NCBI GenBank assembly: GCA_964576115.1
Contig: CAZNUA010000023.1
Span: 1 to 52,336 of the forward strand
DNA length: 52,336 bases
Direction of reading: 5' to 3'
Origin: an uncultured Gemmatimonadota bacterium
GTDB lineage: Bacteria; Blakebacterota; Blakebacteria; Blakebacterales; Blakebacteraceae
Shown: positions 1,979 to 49,944 of the stretch, one piece after another
How the letters are laid out: each line of letters begins with the position of its first letter
How positions within the stretch are numbered: the stretch's first letter is position 1
Translations under genes and position numbers: made by a program
The notes under the pieces: generated by a model
What the model was told of the DNA's origin: nothing
What the model saw: only the letters and a program-made list of their open reading frames with translations
Database searches by the model: none

Positions 1979-3217
1979 ATGCCCACTCCCGTCCGTTCAG
2001 GGGCACTCCTACTCATACTGTTCTGCCTGATCACCTCCTGTTCACAGGAGACCGGGCCGGGTCTGTACTCGTTTCTGGTATATGAAGAAAACGGTCTCAC
2101 CATCGCCGAAACGACCGGTGGCCCGAAATATGACGGGGAGATATTCACTTACACCGAAGTCCTGCGTCTGCAACAGGATGAGTCGAAACCAGAGAGCCTG
2201 CTGAATCGCCCTTACGGTATGACGATGGGTGAGGATGGGAGTGTTTTCATTCTCGATGGCGTTGAACAATGCATCCTGGTCTTCTCGGCCGACGGATCCT
2301 TTCGGCAACGGATGGGCCGGCGAGGTGCAGGGCCGGGTGAATTTGAAGGGGCGCATTATCTCAGTATGTACGGAGATACTCTCAGCGTCTTCGACGGACG
2401 ATTGCGTCGAACCACCCTGTTCAGTGACGATGGGAACCTGCTGACCACTCTCACGTCCCCCCTGCTGCCACCCTTTCTCCGGGCACTGGAGTACGGACCG
2501 GTCGGAGAACTCATCTCTATCAGCAGAAAAGCTGTGACCGATCCCGTCACTCAGGAGAACACATCAGCCGAGGTTGTCCATGTATTCTCTGCTGGTGGAG
2601 ATACCCTTGCAATCCTGGAATCAGATCCGGATCCGGTCCCGGAAACCTCTTACCTGGCACGCTTCGATTATCACGCCATTGTTCCGGTCCATTTCCACGG
2701 ACGAGCCCAGGCTGATTATTTCCCCTATCGGGGAATCATGATGACGAATGGTCATGATCCATGGATCAACTGGTACGACCTGCGGGGCAATCTGAAGCGA
2801 TCAATCAGAATTGATCTGCCACAGGATCCTGTTACTGCTGAAGAAAGGCAGCAGATCCTCCTGAACGCAGAGATTGATATCCAAAACGCACCGGATGAAA
2901 GAGCTCGTGCGATTGCACGCAAGAAAAGGGAGATGCTTGTCATCCCGGATACCAAAGAGTGTTGGGATGGTGTCTTCGCAGATGAGTGGGGGTACCTCTG
3001 GGCAACCATACCACGCGATTATCAACTGAGGCTGCTGATGAGTCCGAGTCACAGGGTATTCAATCCTCAGGGCGAGTATATCGGCGACACGACCTGGCCG
3101 GAGGGAGCCTGGTCGGTATCACGCGGTCATCTGTTGATGATCCTGGACTACGAAACGAACCCCACTCCAGCCATTCTGCAGATCGAGTCTGCCGTACCGG
3201 GATTGATCTATCCGTAG
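1979..3217 (+). CDS. 6-bladed beta-propeller (NHL-like) lipoprotein
   Basis: LITSC lipobox, GGPKYDGEIFTY, MGRRGAGPGEF, FNPQGEYIG. Confidence 0.85.
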   Translation: MPTPVRSGALLLILFCLITSCSQETGPGLYSFLVYEENGLTIAETTGGPKYDGEIFTYTEVLRLQQDESKPESLLNRPYGMTMGEDGSVFILDGVEQCILVFSADGSFRQRMGRRGAGPGEFEGAHYLSMYGDTLSVFDGRLRRTTLFSDDGNLLTTLTSPLLPPFLRALEYGPVGELISISRKAVTDPVTQENTSAEVVHVFSAGGDTLAILESDPDPVPETSYLARFDYHAIVPVHFHGRAQADYFPYRGIMMTNGHDPWINWYDLRGNLKRSIRIDLPQDPVTAEERQQILLNAEIDIQNAPDERARAIARKKREMLVIPDTKECWDGVFADEWGYLWATIPRDYQLRLLMSPSHRVFNPQGEYIGDTTWPEGAWSVSRGHLLMILDYETNPTPAILQIESAVPGLIYP

Positions 3218-3247
3218 CAGTCGTCAGGAATCTGTATCCTGTGTGCT

Positions 3248-4411
3248 TCAGTGGTACGCGAACCCTGCCGGAAGAGGCCTGAGAGCATAGACCACAACCT
3301 CCACAGCCCCGGTTTCGACGTCATCCTGAACGCAGATCATGCGACCTCGGGTGGGTCTGGCATGAAGATGAGGCAAAGTGGTTTCGCCGAGGTATTCACC
3401 CTCCGGACTGAACAGCATGCGGACATTCCGCACTTCCCGATTGAACAGATCATTGGACAGGCCCAGATCTGGACGGACGGCCCAGATATAGCCGTACTCA
3501 TCGATATAGTCGATCCCGAAGCAGGCCTTGGGATCCTGATATTCGATGTATTCATATACCTTCCGTGAGATGATTCGCGACTGCCTGTCATCAGCCGCCC
3601 GAATATGTTCCCGGTGGTATGTTCTGATAGCTCTCTTCTCAGCCTGTGTGACCGCCTCCGGGGGGAAGTTCACGCGGATCACCTTCTGCAGGTGCCCCAG
3701 AAGGTCAAAACACTGCAGGCGAGGTTCCAGGCCGTCGGCCAGGACCAGACCGTGGCGGGGATGATAGAGAATAGTGGGCGACACCGTGAAATACCGCGTC
3801 GCGAAATCGATTGTGTTGTACTGCTCGAGTCTGATACGTCTCCCGATCCGGATGTCCTCGGAGGCCAGTGAGATCAGGGAATCGCCGGCAGCAGAGAACA
3901 CTCTGGCCACGGCTCTCTCAAAACGGTACCAGTCTTCACCTGTGCGCACGACTTCGCCGAGCAGTATCCGCTCATCGGCAGGCCCAAGACGAGTTTCCCA
4001 CGGGATGAACTGACCCTCCCGGGCCGGTAACGGGAACGAGTTCACAAAGGCGCCGTCAGTCCGAAAGATGGATACCCGATTCAGTGGTGCATCCGTGATG
4101 ACAAGCAGATCACGATNNNNNNNNNNNNNNNNNNNNNNNNNNNNNNNNNNNNNNNNNNNNNNNNNNNNNNNNNNNNNNNNNNNNNNNNNNNNNNNNNNNN
4201 NNNNNNNNNNNNNNNNACGGAGTACCTCTTCATAGGTGAACAACTCGCCCTGATACCGGGGACGGGCGGAACTCTCCGCGACCTGGATCCCGTTCTCGGT
4301 TGTGACAGTGAAGGAGTGCGTACTGTCGACATTTCGGACCTTCGCGCATCCGGTGTTCAGAACGATCAGGAGAAGGGGTGAACATCGAATGATCGCTGGT
4401 ATCCGGGGCAT
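3248..4411 (-). CDS. 6-bladed beta-propeller lipoprotein spanning the assembly gap
   Basis: MPRIPAII...LNTGC lipobox, PRYQGELFTYEEVLR, FSPEGEYLG. The true length across the gap is unknown. Confidence 0.75.
   Translation of the reverse strand: MPRIPAIIRCSPLLLIVLNTGCAKVRNVDSTHSFTVTTENGIQVAESSARPRYQGELFTYEEVLRXXXXXXXXXXXXXXXXXXXXXXXXXXXXXXXXXXRDLLVITDAPLNRVSIFRTDGAFVNSFPLPAREGQFIPWETRLGPADERILLGEVVRTGEDWYRFERAVARVFSAAGDSLISLASEDIRIGRRIRLEQYNTIDFATRYFTVSPTILYHPRHGLVLADGLEPRLQCFDLLGHLQKVIRVNFPPEAVTQAEKRAIRTYHREHIRAADDRQSRIISRKVYEYIEYQDPKACFGIDYIDEYGYIWAVRPDLGLSNDLFNREVRNVRMLFSPEGEYLGETTLPHLHARPTRGRMICVQDDVETGAVEVVVYALRPLPAGFAYH
4117..4216. other. Assembly gap (100 N)
   Basis: Run of N. Confidence 1.
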
Positions 4412-4421
4412 GGTTGTTTCC

Positions 4422-5672
4422 TCACCTTCGTCCGTACACCCGGGGGTCGATCCGGTATTTATCGACTCGCGGGAAGTCATCTTCCACCCGGAATTCATTG
4501 AACTTATACAGACATGCATCAGCGATCCGGACGCCATAGTAGTCACCCAAGAACCAGGCCGAGCCGACATAGGACCGTTCATCGGCGTTGAACACATCCG
4601 TGAGTACTTCCCCGCTGTCGTTCTTCGCCGACGTGAAGACAAAAATGAAAGGACCATCGGTTTCGATACCCAGAACGGGAACCGACCAGTGCCGTTCAGC
4701 GATCCCCTCATCAACCAGGTCCCATTGCTCCTCCCATTGCCGAAACTGTTCGGGATCTCTTTCACGTAATTCTTCGTTCGGCAGTGGGCGCGTCCAGGTG
4801 AGTTCGTACAACTCGTAGGAATGGGAGAGTGTTTCCCGCTGCCCGCTTTCCAGATCAATCAGGGTCAGCGTGTACTGCAATTCTTCTCCACCCTGCCGGC
4901 TGTCATGGAAGGTATGCAGATACACGGCCCGGCCATCAGGCAGCGGCGCCGCCAGCAGTTTCCCGAGCGCATCCATACTAACGACAGGTCCGTACTGGCC
5001 ATAGAGCGCATCAGTTTGTTGATATCGAGCCAGAACCGTCAGGGTGTTACCAACAAGGTGGAACAGGAATACCTCGCGATGTTCGAGATTATTACTGTCC
5101 CGATCCTGAGTGCCCACGACCAGGAGGCGCTCGTCCTCCCCCAGGCACCAGACTGATTCCGGCCGGTCAGTACGCAAATCCAGTGAGTCAAGTATGTCCC
5201 GGTAGGGTTGTACAGAGAAGTAATCAACCCGTTCGATGTAGCTGAAATCGGGACGAAAAAAATGGGCTGTGAATCCCATCCGTCCGCCGAATACACACAG
5301 GTACCCTTCCGGACTCATATAGAGATACCGGGCCCACCGGAACTCGCCCGGGCCCGCCCCCGTGCCTCCGAACCTCTGCACCGGTTGACCGTCTGGATCG
5401 AAGACCTTGATCCAATTCTCATCCGCCACCAGCAGATTGCCGTCGGGGTGTATCGCCAGACCGAACCAGTGCGGATCGACCAGCAAATAATCGTCGGGTA
5501 TGTCTTCGGCACCGAAGGAGTATTCGAGAGTCAGTACATCCTGAAGCGGTGCGCCATCAGAGCTTGAGCGTTGATCCGTATCCCGACTGCACGACAGGAC
5601 GAACAGAAAGGGAAGTGCCGTCAGAATGACGAGCAGGGCCCGAAAACGCCCGCGTCGACATGAAGTGAACAT
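4422..5672 (-). CDS. 6-bladed beta-propeller lipoprotein (divergent member)
   Basis: VLSC lipobox, GNLLVADENWIKVFDPDG...FGGTGAGPGEF. Confidence 0.8.
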   Translation of the reverse strand: MFTSCRRGRFRALLVILTALPFLFVLSCSRDTDQRSSSDGAPLQDVLTLEYSFGAEDIPDDYLLVDPHWFGLAIHPDGNLLVADENWIKVFDPDGQPVQRFGGTGAGPGEFRWARYLYMSPEGYLCVFGGRMGFTAHFFRPDFSYIERVDYFSVQPYRDILDSLDLRTDRPESVWCLGEDERLLVVGTQDRDSNNLEHREVFLFHLVGNTLTVLARYQQTDALYGQYGPVVSMDALGKLLAAPLPDGRAVYLHTFHDSRQGGEELQYTLTLIDLESGQRETLSHSYELYELTWTRPLPNEELRERDPEQFRQWEEQWDLVDEGIAERHWSVPVLGIETDGPFIFVFTSAKNDSGEVLTDVFNADERSYVGSAWFLGDYYGVRIADACLYKFNEFRVEDDFPRVDKYRIDPRVYGRR

Positions 5673-5690
5673 GCCATACCTCCATAGGTT

Positions 5691-6914
5691 TCACTCCGGA
5701 TAAGTGAATCCGCGCACCGCCGACCTGATCCTGAAAACGGCCGCCACAGGAGCGCCGGTCTCCTCGTCTTCCCACGAGACGATCAGATGACCGCGACTCG
5801 GATAACCTGAGGACGAATAGCCTGAAACCGCGGGAAAGTTAGTATCACCCAGATATTCGCCCTCAGGGCTCAGAAGGCGCCATTTGCGCTCATGGAAGGG
5901 ATTGGCAAAACTTCCCGGCGGTTCGCTGGCCCAGAAGTACCCGGCCTCATCCACCAGTACTCCGAACCAGAGATCGTGCTCATCGGGAAAGGCGAGTTCG
6001 TCGAGTTCGCGCCGGGCCTGTTCGCGTTCCCAGTCCTCAGCGGCATTTTCGATCTCATCCCGCAGCTGTGAAACAACCCGCTCGCGCTCCACAGCGGTAA
6101 CGGGATCGCGGGGGACGTCGAGTCTGATGATCCGCCGTAGCGATCCGTCGAGATCGTACCATTCCAATTCCGGCTCCGGTGATTTCTCGTGCAGGATCCC
6201 CCAGCCGGGAGCGTAGTGCAGCATCGGAGCGCCCTGGAAAACGCCGGGAACGGGGGCGGGCGGGCTGATGACCTCGGCCAGTTCCTCGCCGCCCTCAGCA
6301 TGAACACCCGCGCGGAAAGCCGATCCTGTCCCTTCACCAACCTGAGCGAAAGCCTGTTGAACCAGAACCAGCCGGTTGCCCGGCGCGGGATACGCTCCGG
6401 TGGTATTGAAGAAAAGCGGCGGCTTCATGGTGACCCTCTCGAACAGAATCGTCCGGACGAAATCGCCGGCGGTGGTGAAGACGGTGGTGCGCATCTGCTG
6501 CATATCGCAGGCGACGACCTGATCATCCCATACCCCCAGAAGCCGGAGCATCCGGAACTCTCCCGGCCCCGATCCTTGCCGACCCATGCTTGTCAGGTAG
6601 CGGCCGGTCGCGTCGTAGACGGCGATTCGATGGTTCCGGCTGTCACCCACATAGACATTGCCCTCCTCATCCATCGTCGGGGCGCCGATCCCGCCGAGGA
6701 CCGTTTCTTCGCGCGCTTCGTCCTGTTCGAGCCGGTAGAGCTCCTCATAGGTGAAGAGGGGCTGGGTGTACTTCGGTCCCCCTTCGGTCAGGGCGACGGG
6801 GACGCCATCTTCCTCAAAGGTGCGAAAGGAATGAACGGCCGATTCCGGTCCCGAGCAGGCGGCGAGCAGGAGTGCGGCGGCCGGCACACTGGTAATGAGG
6901 TTGCGGATTGTCAT
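5691..6914 (-). CDS. 6-bladed beta-propeller (NHL-like) lipoprotein
   Basis: LLLAAC lipobox, GNVYVGDSRNHRIAVYD...MGRQGSGPGEF, LSPEGEYLG. Confidence 0.85.
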   Translation of the reverse strand: MTIRNLITSVPAAALLLAACSGPESAVHSFRTFEEDGVPVALTEGGPKYTQPLFTYEELYRLEQDEAREETVLGGIGAPTMDEEGNVYVGDSRNHRIAVYDATGRYLTSMGRQGSGPGEFRMLRLLGVWDDQVVACDMQQMRTTVFTTAGDFVRTILFERVTMKPPLFFNTTGAYPAPGNRLVLVQQAFAQVGEGTGSAFRAGVHAEGGEELAEVISPPAPVPGVFQGAPMLHYAPGWGILHEKSPEPELEWYDLDGSLRRIIRLDVPRDPVTAVERERVVSQLRDEIENAAEDWEREQARRELDELAFPDEHDLWFGVLVDEAGYFWASEPPGSFANPFHERKWRLLSPEGEYLGDTNFPAVSGYSSSGYPSRGHLIVSWEDEETGAPVAAVFRIRSAVRGFTYPE

Positions 6915-11759: not shown

Positions 11760-13568
11760 TCACCTGCTCGGAGGGTGCAGAAGCACGGAGTTTGTCGTCC
11801 GGGCTATCCAGATCAGGGCGTCATATTCCTGACAGAGAACAACGGGGTAGAACGGATTATCGATTGCTGCTGATCCGATAGAACGGAAGAGCCGCCGGGA
11901 GTGTAACCAACCCGAGGTAGTGGAACTGGCCTCGATGATATGAAGATCCAAGATGAACCGAGGCAACCCGGTTCGCTGAAAAACCAGTTCGACACTCCCC
12001 GATGCCGGAGGTCCAGCCGTATAGGTGGCCAGTCCATTCGGTCCCACCGCCGTATAGTCACCGGTCTCGAAACAAAATCCCATCGAGTAATAATCCTCAT
12101 CATGCCTCTGGGCCAAGTAGCCTCCCATGGACGGCAACTGTTCGTGTATGTGCCCATTGTGAGCCCATAGGACAATCCTGGTACCGGGCGGGTGGTGAGC
12201 CAGTATCCAGTCTACATTATCGGCCATGCTCCGATCGCGATGCCGGGGCTCAGCACTCTGCCGGATGACTTGCGCCTTTTGAATGCCCCAATTCACATCC
12301 TTGCTATCGTGCTGGCGGCAATACCGTTCGCGATTCTCTTCCAGATGGGCCAGGACATCTTCTGTCAGCCTGATGTACCGCTCTTCGTCCTCGTCTGAGA
12401 GAACGCGTTGCCCTCTTTGCAGTGTATTCCGGTAGATCTCGGCCACTTCTCCATATTTCTCTTCGGCTGTGACCGCGTAATCGGGATCAACTTTAGTGAG
12501 AAACTGGTTCACTTCCGTTATGGTCACTAGCGGGGCCTGCATGTCGAAACCCCAGAATTCCATCCTCCCTCTGCCAGAGGCATTGAATTCTCTCATCCAT
12601 TCGATCATGTCGAGTACTTCCCGGGTATTCCAGGTCCAGAAGTAGATATCATCCAGACCCTTGCGCGGATCGCCCGTTCCGGTCAGGACATACCGATTCA
12701 GAGCTTCACATTCAGGCATGTTCGCTTCGATGGCAAAGACAGTGAAACCCATTTCTTCCGCCAGAAACTCCACCAGGCGGTGTTTCATGCGGAAGAACTC
12801 ACTGGTGCCATGAGTACCCTCACCCAAAGCAACGATGCCGGCATCTCCGATTATTTCCTCGAGAGGTTCCAGATCGGTAAAGCCGCTTCCGGCATCGGGG
12901 GTCACGAACGGGATGGCGTTATCCCGCACCCAGGCGATCTGTTCGACTGTCGGATCATCGAATTCGGCCCGTATCAATTCCTCCAGTGACACCCCATTGA
13001 CCGAAATACCCAGACTATCGAACCAGGCCGTGCCATCGCCTTCGAGATAACAGCCGAGGACCGCATATCCCGCCTCAGACGGGACGTCGAGTTCGACCGC
13101 ATAGTGATTCCAGTCCGTGGTACCCCGTGGGGCTCGCACCGGCATATCGTCGAAAGCAATTTGCTGACTGTCATTATCATCCACACGAAACCAGAGCCCG
13201 GCGAATCTCGATCTCACGTTATTAGTCCGGATATAACCGCTGAACCGCACCTTCGTGTCAGCCACGAGATTGATCGGAAGTTGAAGGAAGGTGGCACTGT
13301 GACCACCTGTGTCGATCCGGGCAATCCTCAGGCTGCGTCGTCCGGAATAGAACACATCCTCATCCAGGGCGACGTTGTTGTTCGACTGGATCAGACGCCA
13401 GACACGCGGCAGAGGCGGCTGCCCACCCCACGATTCTTCGAAATCGAGATTGAGTGAGGTCTGTGCTGAAAGTCGTGACGGGATCATAGTCAGCACGCAG
13501 AACAGGATCAGAACTCGGTTCGTACTATTCTGGAAAGCATGTCGGGTTCGGGTTCGCAGAATCATCAA
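11760..13568 (-). CDS. Erythromycin esterase (EreA/EreB-like) family protein with an N-terminal beta-sandwich domain
   Basis: ALGEGTHGTSEFF, FAIEAN, WGFDMQ, RDRSMADN, LWAHNGH motifs and a signal peptide. Confidence 0.88.
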   Translation of the reverse strand: MMILRTRTRHAFQNSTNRVLILFCVLTMIPSRLSAQTSLNLDFEESWGGQPPLPRVWRLIQSNNNVALDEDVFYSGRRSLRIARIDTGGHSATFLQLPINLVADTKVRFSGYIRTNNVRSRFAGLWFRVDDNDSQQIAFDDMPVRAPRGTTDWNHYAVELDVPSEAGYAVLGCYLEGDGTAWFDSLGISVNGVSLEELIRAEFDDPTVEQIAWVRDNAIPFVTPDAGSGFTDLEPLEEIIGDAGIVALGEGTHGTSEFFRMKHRLVEFLAEEMGFTVFAIEANMPECEALNRYVLTGTGDPRKGLDDIYFWTWNTREVLDMIEWMREFNASGRGRMEFWGFDMQAPLVTITEVNQFLTKVDPDYAVTAEEKYGEVAEIYRNTLQRGQRVLSDEDEERYIRLTEDVLAHLEENRERYCRQHDSKDVNWGIQKAQVIRQSAEPRHRDRSMADNVDWILAHHPPGTRIVLWAHNGHIHEQLPSMGGYLAQRHDEDYYSMGFCFETGDYTAVGPNGLATYTAGPPASGSVELVFQRTGLPRFILDLHIIEASSTTSGWLHSRRLFRSIGSAAIDNPFYPVVLCQEYDALIWIARTTNSVLLHPPSR

Positions 13569-13684
13569 TTCACTCCCATGAGCAGATTCAACCAGGTTTC
13601 CTCTGGAACGAACAGGCCGAACTCTCCGTTCAAGTTGAACTCATCTCGAGAGAAAAACTGATGCCGGCATGAAACATTCTGCTC

Positions 13685-13701
13685 CTCTATAACATATAGA
13701 G
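13685..13701. promoter_or_regulatory. Candidate PadR operator (inverted repeat CTCTAT-aacat-ATAGAG)
   Basis: Palindrome in the AT-rich divergent intergenic region about 90 nt upstream of padR. Confidence 0.45.
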
Positions 13702-13792
13702 ATAATACAGAGAGATAACCGCGGGAGGAATCCGGAAGAGGCAAGGAGCTCAGGAGAGGTCCGGAGCTGCCGCACGATCAGGGAGGCACATC

Positions 13793-14137
13793 GTGGCCGG
13801 GAAGAGACCCGAACTCCTGAAAGGCACCCTCGACCTTCTGGTGCTCAAGGCCCTCGATCTGGAATCGATGCACGGCTGGGGACTGACGATCCGGATCGAG
13901 CAGATGTCCGGCGGGGTTTTCCTGATCCACCAGGGAGCGCTTTTCCCCGCCCTGCAGCGCCTCAAACGCAAGGGGCTGATCCGGTCGGAGTGGCGCACGA
14001 CCGAGAACAACCGCAAGGCCAATTACTACCTGCTCACCACCGCCGGTCGCCGTCACCTGGCCGAGAAGATCGCGGAGTGGGAACTCATCTCCGGTACCAT
14101 GAACGAGGTCCTGAAACTGCAGCCGCAGGAGGGATGA
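13793..14137 (+). CDS. PadR-family transcriptional regulator (Acidobacteria-type)
   Basis: LLKGTLDLLVLKAL...MHGWG...QGALFPALQRL...TENNRKANYY. Confidence 0.93.
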   Translation: MAGKRPELLKGTLDLLVLKALDLESMHGWGLTIRIEQMSGGVFLIHQGALFPALQRLKRKGLIRSEWRTTENNRKANYYLLTTAGRRHLAEKIAEWELISGTMNEVLKLQPQEG

Positions 14138-23842: not shown

Positions 23843-26146
23843 TCACCGCCCTGTATTCTGCAGGTTCTTGCCGAACTTGGGCCACGATGAAGATGCCGGT
23901 CCTGAGATGAGAGCTTCGATAGCAATCAACTCACCCTCAGACACGAAATACACAGTATTTTGTCCTGCCGTGAGCCCTTCCACCCAGGGGTAATAGTCAC
24001 TGGCCTCCCGTTCGACATATCCAATCAGTATGCCATCTGGTGAATAGGCATACAGATCGGTTTCCCCGAGAATGATGACATCGTTTCCCTCGGATCGTTC
24101 ACAGACAAGAGGAGTGCATTCCATTTCATTATGGCTTGGATTTGACACCTGTATCATCCAACGATTATTCCCCCCTGCGGAAATGGCCAGTAAGCGTCCT
24201 GATTTGCAGGCCATATAGATCGTATGATCGCTTCCGATAACTGGTGTGATGAAATCAACTGCAGTAGGCATCGAGGCGGACCAGAGAAGCTGTCCGTCAG
24301 GTGAGAAAGCATACAGGTCCGTATCATTACTCCCGATGTATATCGTACCATCTGATGCAATTGCTGGCGTGGAAAAGATCTCTCCTCCTGTTTTATAGCG
24401 CCATTTCCGGGTTCCGTCTGGATTTAGAGCATAGATGTACATATCGCGCGATCCGAAATAGATCGTACCGTCGGATGCTATGGCAGGCGTGCCGGAGATA
24501 TACTTCCCGGTCCTGTGTTTCCACTTGACGCTGCCATCGCTATTCAGCGCGTATAACGTGTCGTTGTTCCCACTTGCATACACGGTACCATCGGCGGCAA
24601 TTGCCGCTGAAGCATCGACAGCGTGATACCCCGGTGGAGCCTGAAAGCTCCAATCGACAGATCCAGTACTTTCATCAAGCGCGAATATCTTGCCCGCAGT
24701 CCCGCCGACATAAACCGTTCCGTCATCAGACAGAACTGGTGACGAGTAATACCCTATGCTTTCCACAGTTTGCCAGATCTGAACACCGCTCGAGCTGATG
24801 GCTCTCACCGGCTGGCTTACGGTGCTGACGTATATGTTCCCGGAAACATCGATGGCGGGGCAGAGGTGCTGTACTTCGCCAATAGCCAGAGACCACTTCA
24901 CCGCTCCGAAAATCTGAGCATCGATCTCGACCTGTGCAGACGCTGTTGCTGACTGGCCGTTGGGATCCCTTATCCCGAGAGTTACCGTCCTCATCCCTTC
25001 GGTATCGAGATTGGTCTCATACGTCTTCTCCGTCATCCAATCCGTATCCCAGACACCGTCACTCTCCCAGTCCCAGCGTACCAGCAGATCGGCCAGAGGT
25101 GACTCCTCATCACTACTGGTTGACGCGTCGAACAGGATCGGTGTCACTGTCGTTGCACCATCGCTTGGAGAGAAAGTGAACGCACCGACCGGAGGTGCAT
25201 TGGTAACCGTGATGGACCGTGACGTCGTGTCCTGACAGGCATCGCTGTCTTCCACCAGCAAGATGATCGTATAGTTGCCCTCAAGGGGATATTGATGAGT
25301 ATTGATCTTTGACGTCGAAAAGGGCGTATCCCAGGTTCCGTCACTGTTCCAGTCCCAGCGGATCCTGAGTTGTGACGTGGAATCCTGCAGATCGCTGGAT
25401 CCTGAGGCATCAAATACAAAGGTCGTAACGATGCTTCCTTCTGTCGGTGTAACGGTAAAGGAAGCCTCCGGGGGATCATTGTGGGAACTGACACGCAATT
25501 CCCTGACAGCTGTGTTGGTAAGACCCCGCGTATCACGCAGTTGCAGGCCGACGTTATATGTGCCGGTCTCGGTGTACTGGTGGTTTTCTGTCTTCGTGAC
25601 GAACCAATCCGTATCCCAGTCCCCATCACCATCCCAATCCCAGCGGACAGAGAGCGAATCGGCCGGCAATTCCGGATGAGTGCAGCCGCTGGCATCGAAA
25701 TGAAAGAGAGTGTCCACGCTCCCGGTAAAAGGAGTGATGATGAATGAGGCCGACGGCACCACGCCGACGCGAATCGAATCCGTGGCCATACTGCTGCTCT
25801 TCCAGGAATCGCGCACTTCAAGAGCGACGGTGTGTGTACCGAAGGTATCGAACTTTCGCTGTCTGACCTTCACGCTCCCCCAGAGCGTGTCCCACACGCC
25901 GTCGCTGTCCCAGTCCCAGCGCACCTGCAGGTAGCAGCCTTTCTCTTCCGGATCTTCCGAGGGGCGGGCATCGAAGACGAAGACGGTGTCGGGCGTGCCG
26001 ACCGAGGGGGTAACGGTGAAAGCGGCGACCGGCGGTTTGTTGTCCGGTTCGGTGGTACAGGCCTCTGCGATGAATATCAGCAGCAGGCATATCGCGAGCG
26101 GAACGAAGACGTAACGTCCGTGACGACCTGGCCGATTGTCTGTCAT
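23843..26146 (-). CDS. Secreted protein with four PKD domains and a PQQ-like (BamB-type) beta-propeller
   Basis: Four RWDW.sDG.WDT repeats, SSPVLSDDGTVYVG / TPAIASDGTIY repeats, C-terminal SSWPKFGKNLQNTG. Confidence 0.88.
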   Translation of the reverse strand: MTDNRPGRHGRYVFVPLAICLLLIFIAEACTTEPDNKPPVAAFTVTPSVGTPDTVFVFDARPSEDPEEKGCYLQVRWDWDSDGVWDTLWGSVKVRQRKFDTFGTHTVALEVRDSWKSSSMATDSIRVGVVPSASFIITPFTGSVDTLFHFDASGCTHPELPADSLSVRWDWDGDGDWDTDWFVTKTENHQYTETGTYNVGLQLRDTRGLTNTAVRELRVSSHNDPPEASFTVTPTEGSIVTTFVFDASGSSDLQDSTSQLRIRWDWNSDGTWDTPFSTSKINTHQYPLEGNYTIILLVEDSDACQDTTSRSITVTNAPPVGAFTFSPSDGATTVTPILFDASTSSDEESPLADLLVRWDWESDGVWDTDWMTEKTYETNLDTEGMRTVTLGIRDPNGQSATASAQVEIDAQIFGAVKWSLAIGEVQHLCPAIDVSGNIYVSTVSQPVRAISSSGVQIWQTVESIGYYSSPVLSDDGTVYVGGTAGKIFALDESTGSVDWSFQAPPGYHAVDASAAIAADGTVYASGNNDTLYALNSDGSVKWKHRTGKYISGTPAIASDGTIYFGSRDMYIYALNPDGTRKWRYKTGGEIFSTPAIASDGTIYIGSNDTDLYAFSPDGQLLWSASMPTAVDFITPVIGSDHTIYMACKSGRLLAISAGGNNRWMIQVSNPSHNEMECTPLVCERSEGNDVIILGETDLYAYSPDGILIGYVEREASDYYPWVEGLTAGQNTVYFVSEGELIAIEALISGPASSSWPKFGKNLQNTGR

Positions 26147-36252: not shown

Positions 36253-39200
36253 ATGAGCGCAGAAGTCGCTGCGGCTGAGGAAGCTGAGGCGAGAGTCAGC
36301 CGGCGCGCAGTCGTGATCGGAGGCGGCATTGCAGGCATGCAGGCCGCCCTCGACCTGGCCAACGCCCGGATACCCGTCACGCTGGTGGAAGCGTCGCCGT
36401 CGCTGGGGGGCCGGATGGCCCAGCTCGACAAGACCTTCCCCACGATGGACTGCTCCATATGAATCCTCGGCCCTCTGGCCATGGATGTCGGTCGACATCC
36501 ACTCATCGAGGTCGTCACCAACGCCGAGGTCGTCGGCTGCGAGGGTGAACCGGGAGACTTCCGGATCACCGTCCATCAGCACCCGCGCTTCGTGAAGGAA
36601 GACGTCTGTGTGGCCTGCGGGCTCTGTGTCGAGACCTGCCCCCAGGTGGGCGGCAACGAGTTCGACATGGGCCTGAAAGCCCGCAAGGCGATCTACCGTC
36701 CCTTTCCGCAGTCGGTCCCGGCGGCATATGTGATCGATCCCTTCGCCTGTCTGAATTTCCTGCCGCACCTGGACGAGAAGCAGAAGAAGCGGCTCGAGAA
36801 AGTGCAGGCCGCCAAGGCGAAGAAACGTCCCGACGTCGCCCTGCCCCACCTGCCCTGCGGCCACTGCCAGGAAACCTGCGAGGTAGGCGCGATCGACTTC
36901 GACATGCTCCCGCGCGAGTGGGAGGTCGAGGCCGGCTCGGTTCTGGTCGCCATCGGCTTCCAGGAATTCGACGCCCGCAAGCTCGGCCAGTACGGCTACG
37001 GCCGGTTCCCGAACGTGATCACCAGTCTCGAACTGGAGCGTATGCTCAACGCCTCGGGGGTCACCCAGGGGCACATGGTGCGACCCTCCGATCTCGGCAC
37101 TCCGAAGCGAATCGTCTTCATCCAGTGCGTCGGCGCCCGCGGCGACGGCGGGCGGCCTTACTGCAGCCGCTTCTGCTGCATGAACGCGGTGAAGGATTCG
37201 ATGCTCATCCGTCAGCACGATCCCGAAGTCGAGGACATCACCATCCTCTACACCGACCTGCGCGCCTTCGGGAAAGGCTTCGACGACTTCGTCAAACGCA
37301 GTGTCGAGGAACAGAGTGCGGAGTACGTGCGCGGCCGTCCCGCCAAGATCGATCTCGATCCCGACGGCAAGACCCTCGTCGTCTACGTCGAAGATACGAT
37401 CGAGCACGAGCAGCGGCGGATCCCCGCCGATCTGGTCGTGCTGAGTGTGGCCGCCGCGCCCAACGACGGCGCTGTCGAGTTGGCGAAGACCCTCGAGATC
37501 GAAACCGACCAGTACGGCTTCATCACGCCCCGGGACCCGGCCGTGAGCAGTGTCGAGACCCGGCGCGACGGTGTGTACGTCTGCGGCTCGGCGATCGGGC
37601 CCCAGGTCATCCCCGACGCCGTAGCCCAGGCTTCGGCCGCCGCGGCCCGGGCCGAACTCTTCCTGCACGGTCACCGTATCGAGGAAGTGTCCGAACCGCC
37701 CGAACCCATGGACACCTCCGGTGCGCCCCGGATCGGGGTGCTGGTGTGCAGTTGCGGAGCCAACATCGGCGGCGTGCTCGATGTCGAGGCACTTGCCGAA
37801 TACGCCCGCTCCATCCCCGATGTAGTGGCCGCCGAAACCTCGATGTTCGCCTGTGCCGAGACCGGCCAGGACCAGGTTGTCGAGCTGATCAAAGAGAACG
37901 ACCTCAACCGTGTGATCGTGGCCTCCTGCACCCCGCGCACGCACGAACCGGTTTTCCGGGAGACCTGTGCCCGAATCGGTTTCAACCCCTACCTGCTCGA
38001 TATGGTGAACATCCGCGACCAGTGCTCGTGGGTGCATGCCAACGAGCCCGAGCTGGCCCAGGTCAAGGCAAAAGACCTGATCCGCATGAGCGTGGCCCGT
38101 ACGCGCAACCTCGAACCGCTCTTCGAGAGCGAGGTACCGATGACCCGTACCGCCCTGGTGCTGGGCGGCGGCATCGCCGGCATCCAGGCCGCCACCGGTT
38201 TGGCCGAACAGGGCTTCGAGACCATCCTGGTCGAGAAGGAGGAGGCCCTCGGCGGGCGCCTGCGCGACCCGAACCTGCATTACCTCTACCCCACCATGCG
38301 GCCCGCCGCCGACGTGCTGAAGACGAACATCGCCCGGCTGAAAAAGAGCGGTGCCCGCATCCTGACCGGTACCGAGGTGGAGAGCATCGATGGTTTTGTC
38401 GGCAATTTCGACATCACTCTGACCGGAGCTGTTTCCGAGGAGGTAAAGGTCGGGGCCATCATCCTGGCCTTCGGCGCCTCCCTGCACGATCCGGGCGAGG
38501 AGTTCGGGTACGACCGTCGTGAGAACGTGATCACGAGCGAAGAACTCGAGACGATCTTCTGCGAGAACGACGACCAGGTGCTGATCGGGGGCCGCAAACC
38601 CGAGAGTGCGTCCTTCATTCTCTGTGTCGGGTCGCGCGAAGAGCACGGTTTCACGGGCTGTTCGCGCTACTGCTGTCCGACCGCCATCAAGCAGGCCCTG
38701 ATCCTGAACGAACAGGGCATCAACACCACCATCTTCTACCGCGACATCAGGACCGTTTCGGCCGGAGCCGAGGAGATGTACCGCAAGGCCCGCGGCCAGG
38801 GGGTACTCTTCATCCGTATCCCCCCCGGCGAGAAACCCGAGATTCTCGGCAACGAACGGGCCGAGGGATTGCGCTGTTACGATGAGCTGCTCGGACAGAA
38901 GCTCGAGGTACCGACCGACCTGGTGATCCTGAGTGTCGGCATGCGGCCGCGCCAGCCCGAGACCGAAAAATTTCACCTCATGCTCAAGGCCAGTATCGGT
39001 CTCGACGGTTTCTTCCTGGAGCGGCATCCCGAGCTCGGCCCGGTGGAAACGGTCGTGGAAGGAGTCTTCCTGGCCGGCACCATTCAGGGCCCCAAGGACA
39101 TCGTCGACTCGGTCGCCCAGGCCTCGGCCGCGGCCGCCAAAGCGGCAGTTCTGCTGTCTTTCGACAGCGTGCGCGTCGAGCCGACCGTTTCGGTCGTGGA

Positions 39201-39432
39201 TGAGGAACGCTGCCGGGGCTGCGGGACCTGCGTGGATATCTGTCCCTTCTCCGCCGCCGCGCTGGTCGAGATCGACGAGGGCGCCCATGTGGCCCGGATC
39301 AACGCTTCGCTCTGCAAGGGGTGCGGTACCTGTGCCGCCTGGTGTCCGTCAGGCGCTATCGCCGCCAAACATTTCACCGACCGTCAGGTCATGTCGATGA
39401 TCGATGCGGCGCTCGCGAAGGAGGCGCCATGA
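36253..39432 (+). CDS. hdrA: Heterodisulfide reductase subunit A-like protein, two-module, selenoprotein (Sec at TGA 36460-36462)
   Basis: ORFs 36238-36462 and 36481-39432 are in one frame: GGGIAG...LDKTFPTMDCSI*ILGPLAMDVGRHP. Also has CSRFCC, CSCGANI, SCTPRTHEP, a second GGGIAG and a C-terminal ferredoxin. Confidence 0.93.
36482..36501 (+). promoter_or_regulatory. Bacterial SECIS-like hairpin of hdrA1
   Basis: TGGATGTC-GGTC-GACATCCA. 27 nt lie between the UGA and the loop. Confidence 0.8.
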
Positions 39433-40064
39433 CCGCGCAGGCGAAGAAGAAGACATCCGCGAAGAAAAAGGCGGGCAACACGAAAACCGCGGCGAAGAAA
39501 ACGGCTGCAAAGAAGAAAACCGCGGCGAAGAAAACGGCTGCAAAAAAGAAAACTGCAACGAAGAAGACCGCGGCAAAAAAGACGGCTGTGAAAAAGAAGG
39601 CCGCCGCGGTCGCCGCCGAGCCGACCGCTGCCGCCCCTGACGGAAAATGGAATCCCGATATCGTGGTCTTCGCCTGCAACTGGTGCTCGTATGCCGGTGC
39701 CGACACGGCCGGGGTATCGCGTCTGCAGCACGAACCGCACTTCCGGATGATCCGGGTCATGTGCTCGGGCCGGGTGCATCCCGGATTCGTGATGCGGGCC
39801 TTCGAGAAGGGAGCCGATGGCGTGCTCGTCTCGGGCTGCCACATCGGCGACTGCCACTATGTCTCGGGGAATGAACGCCAGATCGAGATCTTCGAGATCA
39901 CCAAGCAGCTCACCCACCTGATCGGACTCGAACCGGGGCGGGTGCGGCTGGAGTGGGTCAGTGCCGCCGAGGGGCCCCGCTGGGCCGCTTTGATCAACGA
40001 ATTCACCGACCAGATCCGCAGGCTGGGCCCGAGCCCGCTCAAGGATCAACCGACGGCACGATGA
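39429..40064 (+). CDS. mvhD: MvhD/FlpD [2Fe-2S] subunit with a Lys/Ala-rich N-terminal extension
   Basis: [44 protein letters not shown]. Confidence 0.93.
   Translation: MTAQAKKKTSAKKKAGNTKTAAKKTAAKKKTAAKKTAAKKKTATKKTAAKKTAVKKKAAAVAAEPTAAAPDGKWNPDIVVFACNWCSYAGADTAGVSRLQHEPHFRMIRVMCSGRVHPGFVMRAFEKGADGVLVSGCHIGDCHYVSGNERQIEIFEITKQLTHLIGLEPGRVRLEWVSAAEGPRWAALINEFTDQIRRLGPSPLKDQPTAR
39483..39581 (+). repeat. 33-nt tandem repeat, about 3 copies, encoding KTAAKKTAAKK
   Basis: AAAACCGCGGCGAAGAAAACGGCTGCAAAGAAG, then a 1-mismatch copy, then a degenerate copy. Confidence 0.85.
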
Positions 40065-40080
40065 GGGAGAGTACGGCACG

Positions 40081-41229
40081 ATGGTCGACCTGACTGACGT
40101 CACGCGCAGATCGAAGGCCTGGGCCTGCTACGATTGCGGCAAGTGCACCGCCACCTGCCCTATCGCCCGTGTCGGCGGCTCGTACAGTCCGCGCCGGCAC
40201 ATTCTCTCCAGCAACACCGGCAATCCCGCCTTCATCCTGGAGCAGGAAACGCTTTTCGCCTGCCTGACCTGCAGCCTGTGCGAACAGCGCTGCCCCGCCC
40301 AGGTGCATTACACCGACCTGGTCAAGTACCTGCGCGAGATGGCCTGGGAAGAGGGAATCGAACCCGACTGCCCGCACGGCGGCACGATCCAGTCCCTGAT
40401 CCGGATGATGGCTCAGGGCGGTACGCAGCAGAACCGCCTGGAATGGCTGACCGAAGACCTGAAGACCAGCCCCGACGAAGGCGAGGTCTTCTTCTGGACC
40501 GGCTGCACGATGTACTACGACGCCATCTTTGCCGAATACGAGGGGGCCCACCCCCTCGAAGGCACCCGCGCCGCGGTCCGCCTGCTCAACGCCCTGGACG
40601 TCACTCCGGTCGTGAGCCCACAGGAGCGCTGCTGCGGCCACGATCTGCTCTGGAACGGCGACCGGGAAAACTTCGAGAAACTCGCCCGGCACAACGTCAA
40701 ACTGGTTCAGGATTCCGGGGCTTCGATCCTGGTCACCTCCTGCGCTGAATGCCTGCGGACCTGGAAGCTCGATTACGAACCGTACTTCGAGGGATCGATG
40801 CCCGAGATCGTCCATATCTCCGAGTATGTCGCCCGGCATCTGCCCGAGCTCGAACTCACAGGCAACGGCGGCCTGACCGTCACCTACCAGGATCCCTGCC
40901 GGCTCGGCCGCCAGCTGGGGATCTACGACGCCCCCCGCGAGGTCATGCAGGCCGTACCCGGCCTGGAGCTGGTCGAAATGCGGCACAACCGGACCGGTGC
41001 GACCTGCTGCGCCGGCGGGACCTGGTCGAACTGCGACATCTACGCCAAGAAGATCCAGGTAACCCGGCTGACCGAAGCGCGGGCCACCGGGGCCCAGGTC
41101 ATGGTCACGGCCTGTCCGAAGTGTCAGATCCACTTCAGCTGTGCCATGAAGGATCCGATCGAGAAGGAGAACATCACCATCGAGATGCGCGACGTGGCCG
41201 AGATTCTGCTCGACGCGCTCTCGACGTAA
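40081..41229 (+). CDS. HdrD/GlpC-like Fe-S protein (2x[4Fe-4S] plus two CCG domains)
   Basis: [48 protein letters not shown]. Confidence 0.9.
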
Positions 41230-41267
41230 CAAACAACAAAGACCGTTTCCGGGAAGGAAAGGGACTG

Positions 41268-43772
41268 ATGCAAGCAGACACGTCAACAGGCGAAGAGCTC
41301 CGGATCGGCGTCTTCATCTGCGACTGCGGCCTGAATATCGCAGGTGCAGTGGACACCGCCGCCGTGACGGAATACGCCGAGACGCTGCCCGATGTGGCGT
41401 GCGCAATACGCAATAAATACACCTGCGCCGACCCCGGTCAGAACGAGATCAAGAGGGCCGTTCAGGAGTACAAGCTCAACCGCGTGGTCGTTGCCTCCTG
41501 CACCCCGCGCCAGCACGAGCCGACCTTCCGGCAGTGCGTCTCCGAGGTGGGGCTGAACCCCTACCTCATGGAGATGGCCAACCTGCGCGAGCACTGCTCC
41601 TGGGTCCACCCCAACGACCGCGAAGGCGCCACCGCCAAGGCCAAGGACCTGGTCGCCGGTGCTGTGGCCCGGGCCCGTTTCCTGAAGAGCCAGGATGAGC
41701 TGACGGTTCCGGTTTCGCAGCGCGCCCTGGTGATCGGCGGCGGCATCGCCGGGATCGAGGCGGCGATCGAACTGGCCGATGCGGGACACAAGGTCACCCT
41801 GGTCGAAAAAGCGCCCTCCATCGGTGGGATCATGGCTCAGCTCGACAAGACCTACCCCACCATGGACTGCTCTATATGAATTCTGGGCCCTAAGGCCATC
41901 GATGCCGGTCGGCATCCGAATATAGAGCTGCTCACCTACAGCGAGGTCGAAGCCGTCTCGGGCTACGTCGGCAACTTCGAGGTCACGATCCGCAAGAAGG
42001 CCCGCTATGTGGACCTCGAGACCTGCAACGCCTGTGCCGAGTGCGCCAATGTGTGCCCGCAGGTCGTGCCCGACGAGTACCAGGTGGGACTTTCGGCCCG
42101 CAAGGCGATCTACATCCCCTTCCCGCAGGCGGTACCCTGTGTCTATGTCCTCGACATGGAGAACTGCCTGGGCAACAACCCGATCGCGTGCGGCAAGTGT
42201 GCCGAGGTGTGCGAGCAGAACGCCATCAACTACGACGACGCCGACGAGCTGATCACCCGCGAAGTCGGAGCGGTCATCGTGGCCATCGGTCTGGATGTCT
42301 ACGATCCGACCGAGATGGACGAGTACGGTTACACCCGCTTCGAGAACGTGATCACCTCGATGGAGTTCGAACGCCTGATCTGCGCCGGGGGACCGACCGA
42401 GGGGCACTTCGTGCGCCCGAGCGACATGGACCACCCCAAGCGGATCGGTTTCATCCAGTGCGTCGGGTCGCGCAATCCGGCCATCGGGCGACCCTACTGC
42501 TCGAATATCTGCTGCATGAACACCGTCAAGGACACCCTCCTGCTGGCCGACCACTATCCCGATGTGGAGAACGTGGTCTTCTACCAGGATATCCGCGCCT
42601 TCGGCAAGTCGTTCGAGGACATGTTCCAGCGCTCGAAGGAATCAGGTACCCGCTACGTGCGGGGCCTGCCCGGCGACATCGAGGAGGATCCCGAAACCAA
42701 GAACCTCGTCATCACGGTCGAGAACACCACCTCGGGCCGGATCGAGAGGCACGAGCTGGACATGGTCGTGCTCTCGGTCGGGGTGGTTCCGCCCAAGGAT
42801 CTGAAGAAGATCTCGGGGCTCTTCACCCTCTCGAAGACCTCCGACGGGTTCTTCATGGAATCGCACCCGAAACTGAAACCGATCGACGCCCCCACCAAGG
42901 GGGTGTATTTCGCCGGTTTCTGCGAGGCCCCGAAGGACATCAAGGACTCGGTCTGCCAGGCCGGCGCCGCGGCCTCGAAGGTGGGAGCCCTGCTCAACGC
43001 CGGAGAGGTCCGCATCGAGGCCCTCACCAGCCACATCGACGAGGAACTCTGCACCGGTTGCGGTGTCTGTGCCTCGGTCTGTCCCTTCTCGGCGATCCGC
43101 TGGGAGAAGGGCCAGAAGGCCCATGTCATCGAAGCGATGTGCGCCGGCTGCGGGGCTTGCGGAGCGGCCTGCAACTTCGGCGCCATCGAGATGCGGCACT
43201 TCACCGACTCGCAGATGGTGGCCCAGATCCAGGCCGTGCTGGCAGACAAACCCGAGGAGAAGGTCTTCGTCTTCGCCTGCAACTGGTGTTCGTATGCCGG
43301 AGGCGACATGGCGGGGATCTCCCGTCTCCAGTATCCGACCTCGAACCGCGTCGTCAGAACCATGTGTTCGGCGCGGGTATCCGAAGAAATGGTTCTCGAA
43401 GCCTTCCGCAACGGGGCCGCGGTGGTGCTGGTCTCGGGCTGCCATTACGCCGACTGCCATTACATCAGCGCCAACCGCGAGACCGTCAAGCGGGTCCAGC
43501 GGCTCTGGAACAAGCTCGAGAAGGCCGGGGTGCGCCCCGAGCGGCTGCAGCTGGAGTGGATCAGCGCCGCCGAGGGCCAGAAGTTCGCCAAGGTGATGAG
43601 GCAGATGGAGGAGCTGCGCTCGACGGTCACGCTCGAAGAGGTCGAGTACGCCCGCGAGGCGCTCAAACCGAAGTCGAAGAAAGAGAAGAAGGCCAAGGCC
43701 GGGGAGGATGCCAAAGCCTCCGCAAAGACGGAAGAGACGGAGAAGGCGGAGACCGAAACGGTCTCGAACTGA
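41268..43772 (+). CDS. hdrA: HdrA-MvhD fusion, selenoprotein (Sec at TGA 41877-41879)
   Basis: [12 protein letters not shown]...GGGIAG...[35 protein letters not shown] continues in frame into ORF 42009-43772. Also CSNICC, a ferredoxin and a C-terminal FACNWCSY...GCHYADCHY. Confidence 0.93.
41901..41916 (+). promoter_or_regulatory. Bacterial SECIS-like hairpin of hdrA2
   Basis: GATGCC-GGTC-GGCATC. 27 nt lie between the UGA and the loop. Confidence 0.8.
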
Positions 43773-49867: not shown

Positions 49868-49944
49868 TGGTCGGGGTGGCCGGATTTGAACCGGCGACCC
49901 CCGCGTCCCGAACGCGGTGCTCTACCGGACTGAGCCACACCCCG
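49868..49944 (-). tRNA. tRNA-Pro (anticodon CGG)
   Basis: CGGGGTGTGGCTCAGTCCGGTAGAGCACCGCGTTCGGGACGCGGGGGTCGCCGGTTCAAATCCGGCCACCCCGACCA, full cloverleaf with encoded CCA. Confidence 0.97.

Follow-up and report, generated by a model that had tools for sequence, protein, structure and literature searches.

Two HdrA genes with in-frame UGA codons and GGUC-loop hairpins of the bacterial SECIS type in a Blakebacterota genome

According to the sections of PMC13188914 cited here, the bacterial selenocysteine insertion sequence (bSECIS) has a loop of 3-9 nucleotides (nt), a stem of 4-16 base pairs (bp), a G as first or second loop base, with G or U as the usual next base, a distance of 16-37 nt between the UGA codon and the loop, and a minimum free energy (MFE) of -7.5 kcal/mol or lower; the spacing rule is restated in PMC10778597. 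The SECIS of Escherichia coli fdhF (NC_000913.3, folded in this study) lies 18 nt behind its UGA and consists of GCA-GGUC-UGC with a one-base bulge below. HdrA is listed as a CxxU selenoprotein family (PMC13188914), and bacterial hdrA-hdrA fusions and their linkage to FrhD/MvhD and GlpC have been described (PMC1794560). Here, we analyzed a stretch of 52,336 nt (hereafter the window; contig CAZNUA010000023.1 of assembly GCA_964576115.1) from an uncultured Gemmatimonadota bacterium, placed in Blakebacterota by GTDB. In this window, two genes encoding HdrA fusion proteins each contain one in-frame UGA, and each UGA is followed by a hairpin with a GGUC loop.

Judged from sequence comparison, the probability that the two hairpins serve as the bacterial SECIS of their respective HdrA genes is roughly 0.93. 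Both are an ordinary case, SECIS signals of a long-known type. The mRNA stretch encoding D-[V/A]-G-R-H-P would fold into a stem of 6-8 bp under a GGUC tetraloop, the C-terminal winged-helix domain of the organism's own SelB would bind this loop, and SelB would bring Sec-tRNA(Sec) to the UGA located 27 nt upstream. Selenocysteine (Sec) would enter at the conserved flavin-site cysteine (Cys) position, which is Cys197 in HdrA of M. thermolithotrophicus, and termination would be avoided. SelB binding and Sec insertion presumably take place at both UGAs.

Two HdrA genes and the hairpins behind their UGA codons

When TGA is read as Sec, the flanking frames fuse into two long genes, whose features are as follows.

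36253..39432, + strand: gene 1, tandem HdrA-HdrA fusion of about 1059 codons with one UGA taken as read through; motif DCSI-U-ILGP in the first HdrA module (translation, Pfam)
36457..36459, + strand: AUA (Ile) codon immediately 5' of UGA 1 (sequence)
36460..36462, + strand: UGA 1, predicted to be read as Sec (long open frames on either side; Cys in aligned paralogues and homologues)
36469..36480, + strand: spacer hairpin P2 of gene 1, GGCC-CUCU-GGCC (fold)
36482..36501, + strand: SECIS hairpin 1 (candidate), TGGATGTC-GGTC-GACATCCA, 8-bp stem, GGUC loop at 36490-36493, encoding M-D-V-G-R-H-P (fold, RNAalifold consensus)
41268..43772, + strand: gene 2, HdrA-MvhD fusion of 834 codons with one UGA taken as read through (structure alignment, Pfam)
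41869..41877, + strand: 5' strand of outer helix P1, GCUCUAUAU, made of the Cys-Ser-Ile codons and the U of UGA 2 (fold)
41874..41876, + strand: AUA (Ile) codon immediately 5' of UGA 2 (sequence)
41877..41879, + strand: UGA 2, predicted to be read as Sec (aligned to Cys197 of 5odc_A)
41886..41897, + strand: spacer hairpin P2 of gene 2, GGCC-CUAA-GGCC (fold)
41901..41916, + strand: SECIS hairpin 2 (candidate), GATGCC-GGTC-GGCATC, 6-bp stem, GGUC loop at 41907-41910, encoding D-A-G-R-H-P (fold)
41920..41928, + strand: 3' strand of outer helix P1, AUAUAGAGC, in the codons for N-I-E-L (fold)

In the product of gene 1, the FAD/NAD Rossmann and 4Fe-4S domains were each found twice by Pfam. In that of gene 2, Pfam placed an FlpD domain at residues 668-784. 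The solved HdrA of M. thermolithotrophicus (5odc_A) matches residues 9-660 of the gene 2 product at 793.6 bits, the solved MvhD (5odc_D) matches residues 663-780, and 9sfi_A matches the product at 700 bits. UGA 2 stands at the second Cys of DCSIC, which is Cys197 of 5odc_A by count along the alignment. The gene 2 product therefore shows both marks of the HdrA CxxU selenoprotein family, the full-length HdrA architecture and Sec at the second Cys of D-C-S-x-C. Five HdrA-like modules of the genome retain the Cys/Sec site. Two of them, those in the window genes, have TGA; the other three have Cys and lack both the hairpin and the peptide D-x-G-R-H-P. Standard gene callers would split or truncate both genes, and their correct reading is as single selenoproteins.

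The source genome (3.96 Mb in 144 contigs, 93.7% complete) contains selA (479 bits), selB (320 bits; cut-off 242), selD (330 bits) and the gene for tRNA-Sec, selC (66 bits; cut-off 47). The SelB protein of 648 amino acids, encoded at L001:685-2631 on the minus strand, is composed of an EF-Tu GTPase domain, a SelB beta-barrel and the SECIS-binding winged helix SelB-wing_3. The machinery is complete, and the organism is able to decode Sec.

Both hairpins are located inside the reading frame, directly 3' of an in-frame UGA aligned to Cys of homologues. The 20-nt hairpin of gene 1 has an MFE of -11.0 kcal/mol and the 16-nt core of the gene 2 hairpin one of -8.2 kcal/mol, and none of 200 shuffles was as stable in either case. 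With 2 nt added on each side (20 nt), the gene 2 hairpin reaches -9.3 kcal/mol, and 5 of 200 shuffles were as stable. The two stems differ in one pair, which is T-A in gene 1 (GTC/CGA, Val/Arg) and C-G in gene 2 (GCC/CGG, Ala/Arg).

The earlier note, which was made from the sequence alone, had pointed out the position of these hairpins, their common GGUC loop 27 nt from the UGA, the U-A to C-G swap that keeps the stem paired while Val changes to Ala, and an ATA codon that precedes both UGAs and looked rare in these genes. All of its statements on the sequence were correct. Its view that the hairpins fit the bacterial SECIS model was also borne out: the 4-nt loop, the stems of 8 and 6 bp, the GG-led loop, the distance of 27 nt and the MFEs of -11.0 and -8.2 kcal/mol agree with all five features of the published consensus. 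When the regions were folded, as the note had advised, each hairpin was the predicted fold.

Conservation of the hairpin together with the Sec codon

Two collections of homologues were used. Among 41 related genomes, 56 HdrA matches were listed, 23 with one TGA and 33 with none. A protein-guided scan of one genome per species gave 574 relatives, and the analysis was made on the best 80, which share 67-87% identity over a 150-residue stretch around the Sec site. After removal of 5 duplicates, the 23 and the 80 gave a Sec set of 98 distinct fragments; the non-Sec set has 30 fragments (29 Cys and 1 Glu). TGA is present at this codon in all of the best 80 relatives, which belong to Planctomycetota (20), Acidobacteriota (14), Zixibacteria (11), Gemmatimonadota (5), Myxococcota (4), Ignavibacteriota (3), Bacteroidota (3), Eisenbacteria (2), Fibrobacterota (2), Pseudomonadota (1), Krumholzibacteriota (1) and unplaced bins (14). 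The collection holds 10 genomes of the organism's own phylum. Both genes are found in 8 of them and gene 1 only in G009, whereas neither gene's orthologue was found in G001, which is 83% complete. TGA is kept in all 18 orthologues of gene 1 and gene 2 in 9 phylum genomes, and it is the single TGA in those of gene 1.

A degenerate 16-nt core, GATGYCGGTCGRCATC, was kept in 94 of the 98 Sec homologues. The exceptions are L037 and L038, in which the hairpin has another register, L033, with one A-C mismatch, and L113, with GGA in the loop. In the alignment of 123 columns, the only substantial helix found by RNAalifold was exactly the 6-bp hairpin. Its partners pair in 99.1% of 588 cells, a value that was reached by none of 500 column shuffles, while slid partners pair in 16-67%. 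Five of the six pairs are invariant or nearly so.

The core was found in none of the 30 non-Sec homologues, nor did any of them have a GGTC-capped hairpin near the homologous position; L046 has a 4-bp GGTC stem 74 nt downstream. The homologous 24 nt have a mean MFE of -9.8 kcal/mol in the Sec set (n = 98) and -3.9 kcal/mol in the non-Sec set (n = 30), a difference that the Mann-Whitney p-value overstates since the sequences are interrelated. Because the Cys genes of this set are distant (56% identity at most), a sample chosen blind to the hairpin was added. It was drawn from 401 Planctomycetota genomes, which gave 36 matches at E <= 1e-50, 23 with TGA and 13 without; 12 and 8 of them, respectively, were retrieved. 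The exact core is present in 5 of the 12 Sec genes and, but for a G-U pair at its base, in 1 more; the remaining 6 form different stable hairpins whose loops contain G. The 8 Cys genes all lack the core. L188, the nearest of them, is 65% identical (MDCSIC..AEAGRHE) and reads GAG GCG GGG CGC CAC in place of the hairpin, with ATC, not ATA, before the Cys codon. The hairpin thus accompanies UGA, not Cys. The earlier note had named equal conservation in Cys-encoding orthologues as the result that would speak against a SECIS, and such conservation was not seen (0/30 and 0/8), three metagenomic Cys genes excepted.

These three (L146, L148 and L150) were obtained by scanning metagenomes for TGY-ATH followed by the exact hairpin; of the 5 sites found, the other two are chance matches. 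Their contigs carry real Cys-HdrA genes with the exact 16-nt core 27 nt after the Cys codon. Their hairpins are probably relic SECIS elements left after a recent Sec-to-Cys conversion; relic SECIS-like structures in Sec-derived Cys genes are mentioned in the legend of Fig. 4 of PMC1794560. The same three genes suggest another explanation, in which the conserved hairpin is an RNA element with a different role, such as pausing, stability or a binding site for another protein, and the UGA is recoded independently of it. The spacing, longer than in the canonical E. coli element, also speaks for such a role. However, the same loop is present in the fdhF SECIS and behind four unrelated Sec codons of the organism's own genome, the element follows the UGA in 94 of 98 Sec genes and is missing from all 30 non-Sec homologues, and relic structures of this kind have a precedent. 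A different role is therefore improbable.

It is still less probable that the hairpin merely results from conservation of the peptide D-[V/A]-G-R-H-P, without any function as RNA. The stem and loop do lie entirely in conserved codons, and some Cys homologues (L044, L022 and L188) have G-R-H too, but these use other codons and form no hairpin. Conservation of the peptide would not fix synonymous third positions. In the hairpin, Asp is encoded by GAT in 96 of 96 cases, compared with a background of 29% in the same genes, Ala by GCC in 59 of 59 (background 50%), the loop codon Gly by GGT in 95 of 98 (18%), Arg by CGA or CGG in 97 of 98 (36%), and His by CAT in 98 of 98 (37%); GAT, GCC, GGT and CAT thus stand at 95-100%, compared with 18-50% elsewhere. 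The codons flanking the hairpin have a synonymous entropy of 1-2 bits, and the Asp four codons 5' of the UGA is GAC in 85 of 96. This freezing of silent sites is confined to the hairpin and is not explicable by peptide conservation alone.

Nor would conservation of the peptide couple its second position, Val or Ala, to the Arg codon. The variable pair of the stem (columns 59-66) is CG in 59, UA in 31 and UG in 6 of the 98 Sec homologues and unpaired in 2 (one UU and one CA). The swap described in the earlier note is therefore real and recurrent, and the covariation it had proposed to look for was found: in a FastTree phylogeny with the five hairpin codons masked, the pair made at least 20 changes among four states, and UA and CG were interleaved within both paralogue clades. 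Strong selection acts on the RNA structure, independently of the protein.

The weakest alternative, that the UGAs are true stops of split genes or pseudogenes with separate or dead downstream frames, has in its favor that the standard gene call splits both genes at the UGA, and it can be dismissed, since the read-through product and solved HdrA can be aligned from one end to the other, Cys197 falling at the UGA, the TGA is kept in 80/80 best relatives and 18/18 orthologues, and the Sec machinery is complete.

Several findings weigh against the hairpins being SECIS elements. Rfam gave no SECIS family for either locus, neither in a gathering scan of the window nor in a scan of both loci at E <= 10, which returned chance matches only. 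The UGA-to-loop distance exceeds those of fdhF (18 nt) and of the organism's own peroxiredoxin (17 nt) by 9-10 nt, and the upper stem of fdhF is bulged whereas both HdrA stems are perfect. The genes L146, L148 and L150 indicate that the hairpin can persist without Sec. Finally, the 16-nt core is not the sole solution, since distant Sec-HdrA genes, among them those of a phylum of 6 genomes and 6 of 12 Planctomycetota genes, use other hairpins.

AUA codon, outer helix and spacer hairpin

The context preceding the UGA is conserved as well, as the earlier note had suspected for the ATA codon. Of the Ile codons, ATA accounts for only 2 of 63 in gene 1 and for 3 of 45 in gene 2. In 84 of the 98 Sec homologues it stands directly before the UGA, whereas its share of the Ile codons in the remainder of these genes is 12%, and a further Planctomycetota sample had ATA in 8 of 8 genes with Ile before the UGA. 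Column 30, the third base of AUA, is paired to column 75 in just 25 of the 98 homologues, so pairing does not account for this base. The other Sec genes of the organism's own genome have no AUA before the UGA.

In longer folds of gene 2, GCUCUAUAU, which ends in the U of the UGA, forms a 9-bp outer helix (P1) with the downstream AUAUAGAGC. The 7-bp core of P1 pairs in 85% of 686 cells, compared with 24-41% for slid partners; the shuffle test for this helix is inflated by the relatedness of the sequences. Pairs 24-81 and 27-78 have changes on both sides, with co-changes at silent sites: Ile is ATC or ATT in 40 of the 42 cases with Ser TCG and ATA in 13 of the 25 with Ser TCT, and Glu GAA accompanies Cys TGT in 10 cases.

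These features raise the idea that the recoding signal of the HdrA clade is a composite cassette, made of the GGUC hairpin, P1, which would place the UGA inside a three-way junction, and a rare AUA in the P site, and that this cassette moves with the gene between phyla. We regard this idea as doubtful. In gene 1, P1 is less well formed, only 5 of its 7 positions being paired as read from the alignment row, and pair 27-78 is broken in 44 of 98 homologues, both of which argue against it. P1 and AUA might slow the ribosome before the UGA and so offset the position of the hairpin, about 10 nt further away than in the organism's own peroxiredoxin SECIS.

Between the UGA and the SECIS hairpin lies a second small hairpin, P2 (GGCC-NNNN-GGCC). 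It is partly conserved, with pairing in 77% of cells, and is lost in the 'KMM' variants. P2 is probably not essential. As an essential part of the signal it was rejected, since two of its four pairs are broken in 31-43 of 98 homologues and the 'KMM' variants have no P2; its possible role as a compactor, shortening the 27-nt spacer to about 17 nt, was set aside on the same grounds and because, judged from ribosome footprints, the 5' strand of P2 would sit within the ribosome with the UGA in the A site.

The locus, the GGUC loop in the genome and known systems

The locus contains, in order, a MarR regulator, three 2-oxoacid:ferredoxin oxidoreductase subunits, gene 1, an MvhD gene, a CCG-domain Fe-S protein, gene 2, and HdrC-like and HdrB-like genes (Pfam). 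Both selenoprotein products, the HdrA-HdrA and the HdrA-MvhD fusion, belong to a flavin-based electron-bifurcation locus beside the 2-oxoacid:ferredoxin oxidoreductase. Other features of the window are listed below.

39321-40064, + strand: MvhD/FlpD gene between the two selenoprotein genes, without internal stop (Pfam)
40081-41229, + strand: CCG-domain Fe-S protein of HdrD/GlpC type between the two selenoprotein genes, without internal stop (Pfam)
49868-49944, - strand: tRNA-Pro (CGG), the sole RNA gene in the window by Rfam and ARAGORN

The G+C content is 54-55% at 2001-6000, 12001-14000 and 24001-26000 and 60-68% in the remainder of the window; the low-G+C stretches may be acquired DNA.

The two-gene arrangement, with a Sec-HdrA gene of the gene 1 type about 5 kb upstream of one of the gene 2 type, is kept in G046, G047, G048 and G049. 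These are the genomes behind L072, L069, L094 and L117 and are labelled Planctomycetota, Acidobacteriota, Deltaproteobacteria and Zixibacteria. The shared arrangement and the protein identity of 67-87% across phyla point to lateral spread of the whole locus between phyla. The 16-nt core tracks the HdrA gene clade, in both paralogues, over at least 11 named phyla, and not the lineage of the organism. The near-invariant core is a usable probe for this HdrA clade in many uncultured phyla. In the more distant Sec-HdrA genes of the six-genome phylum of G039, the hairpin lies 5 nt further upstream, with AGGU or AGGC loops at 22 nt and a covariation of its own. As a separate observation, G048, a deltaproteobacterial bin, has an HdrA-like match (C53:25742-26155, 47% identity) with one in-frame TAG, which could be a pseudogene or a pyrrolysine-type readthrough.

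Further selenoprotein genes of the organism's own genome were sought with two screens, one based on a codon model (94 candidates) and one anchored on GGUC (48). These replaced a GC3-based screen, whose 233 candidates were mainly adjacent genes or shadow frames. The candidates are as follows.

C66:13532, - strand: candidate peroxiredoxin (FTFV-U), GGUC loop at 17 nt, Pfam domain across the UGA
C40:21084, + strand: AhpC/TSA-like candidate, GGUC loop at 17 nt, Pfam domain across the UGA
C50:18447, + strand: AhpC/TSA-like candidate of TlpA type (W-U-P-P-C), GGUC loop at 31 nt, Pfam domain across the UGA
C22:11897, - strand: DUF255/thioredoxin-like candidate, GGUC loop at 44 nt, Pfam domain across the UGA
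C22:7480, - strand: Thioredoxin_7 candidate, loop other than GGUC, Pfam domain across the UGA
C13:4949, + strand: DsrE-like candidate, GUG loop at 19 nt, Pfam domain across the UGA
C1:75472, - strand: candidate with the motif T-U-K-E-C, without Pfam support

The selD, molybdopterin (FdhA-type) and FlpD/MvhD matches of the genome have no internal stop and hence are not selenoproteins here; no Sec-type formate dehydrogenase, SelD or MvhD was found. Like the HdrA hairpins, the four GGUC candidates have a GGUC tetraloop on a stem of 6-8 bp behind an in-frame UGA. They differ from them in the spacing (17, 17, 31 and 44 nt, not 27), in having no AUA before the UGA and in their unrelated stems. GGUC thus appears to be the general SelB loop of this organism, as in E. 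coli, and the 27 nt are peculiar to HdrA. Because GGUC hairpins stand at 17 to 44 nt in one genome, its SelB appears to recognize the E. coli-type loop with loose spacing.

Three suggestions of the earlier note did not survive this comparison. The hairpin had been proposed as a candidate lineage-specific motif, but the GGUC loop is found in E. coli fdhF and, within this genome, behind the UGA of no fewer than four further selenoprotein genes, and the core spans at least 11 phyla. A genome scan for TGA-N27-GGTC had been recommended for finding more selenoproteins. With a stem of at least 5 bp, it gave 9 sites, compared with 1-14 at other spacings from 10 to 44 nt, so there was neither enrichment nor a new selenoprotein, and long open frames on both sides were seen only at the two HdrA sites. 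The identical 27-nt spacing is exact in both genes, but they are paralogous and have no indel over the 9 codons, so it is not independent evidence and merely reflects paralogy; nor does it describe the other Sec genes of the genome, whose spacings are those listed above.

In the same genome, outside the window, FG-GAP repeat proteins (G000:C36:26529, - strand, and G000:C6:2580, + strand) have an in-frame TGA at one aligned position. The loci with this TGA are L167, L168 and L208-L215, and the motif is [S/G]-U-C-[I/M]-G-F-x-P-Q-F-V-D-L-N-G-D-G. Exactly one TGA was present in 8 of 8 matches from 4 phylum genomes, and 7 of the 8 align at U-C, with a CCACAG..GUGG hairpin behind it. In the main text of the 2026 review of prokaryotic selenoproteomes, none of the terms FG-GAP, VCBS, integrin and repeat occurs. 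These proteins may be an undescribed selenoprotein family.

Among described systems, Sec-HdrA (CxxU) of Methanococcales, Deltaproteobacteria and Clostridia resembles the window genes in that the same Cys is swapped for Sec (DCSxU/C). The cited sections of PMC1794560 and PMC13188914 also give hdrA-hdrA fusions, MvhD/FrhD linkage and CCG-domain (GlpC-like) neighbors, as found here. A difference is that the MvhD and CCG-domain proteins of the window locus are not selenoproteins. In archaeal Sec-HdrA, the SECIS is placed outside the reading frame by the parts of reviews cited here, whereas the window genes have a bacterial in-frame hairpin.

No feature of the bSECIS consensus model is missed by the two hairpins. 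The model is silent on the outer helix enclosing the UGA and on the codon before the UGA, both of which are conserved here. Knowledge of Sec decoding is unchanged by this locus, and only the AUA-UGA context and the outer helix might repay experiment.

The fdhF SECIS of E. coli is likewise an in-frame hairpin just 3' of a Sec UGA, with the same GGUC loop, and it is served by a SelB with a C-terminal winged helix, a domain that is present in the organism's own genome. The loop G/U and the bulged U of the fdhF SECIS have roles in SelB binding. Compared with a narrow fdhF type, defined by the GGUC loop, the bulge and about 18 nt, the HdrA hairpins have the identical loop, no bulge and a distance of 27 nt, and the host gene family differs. 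By analogy, the HdrA hairpin would work like the fdhF SECIS, yet it is no copy of it.

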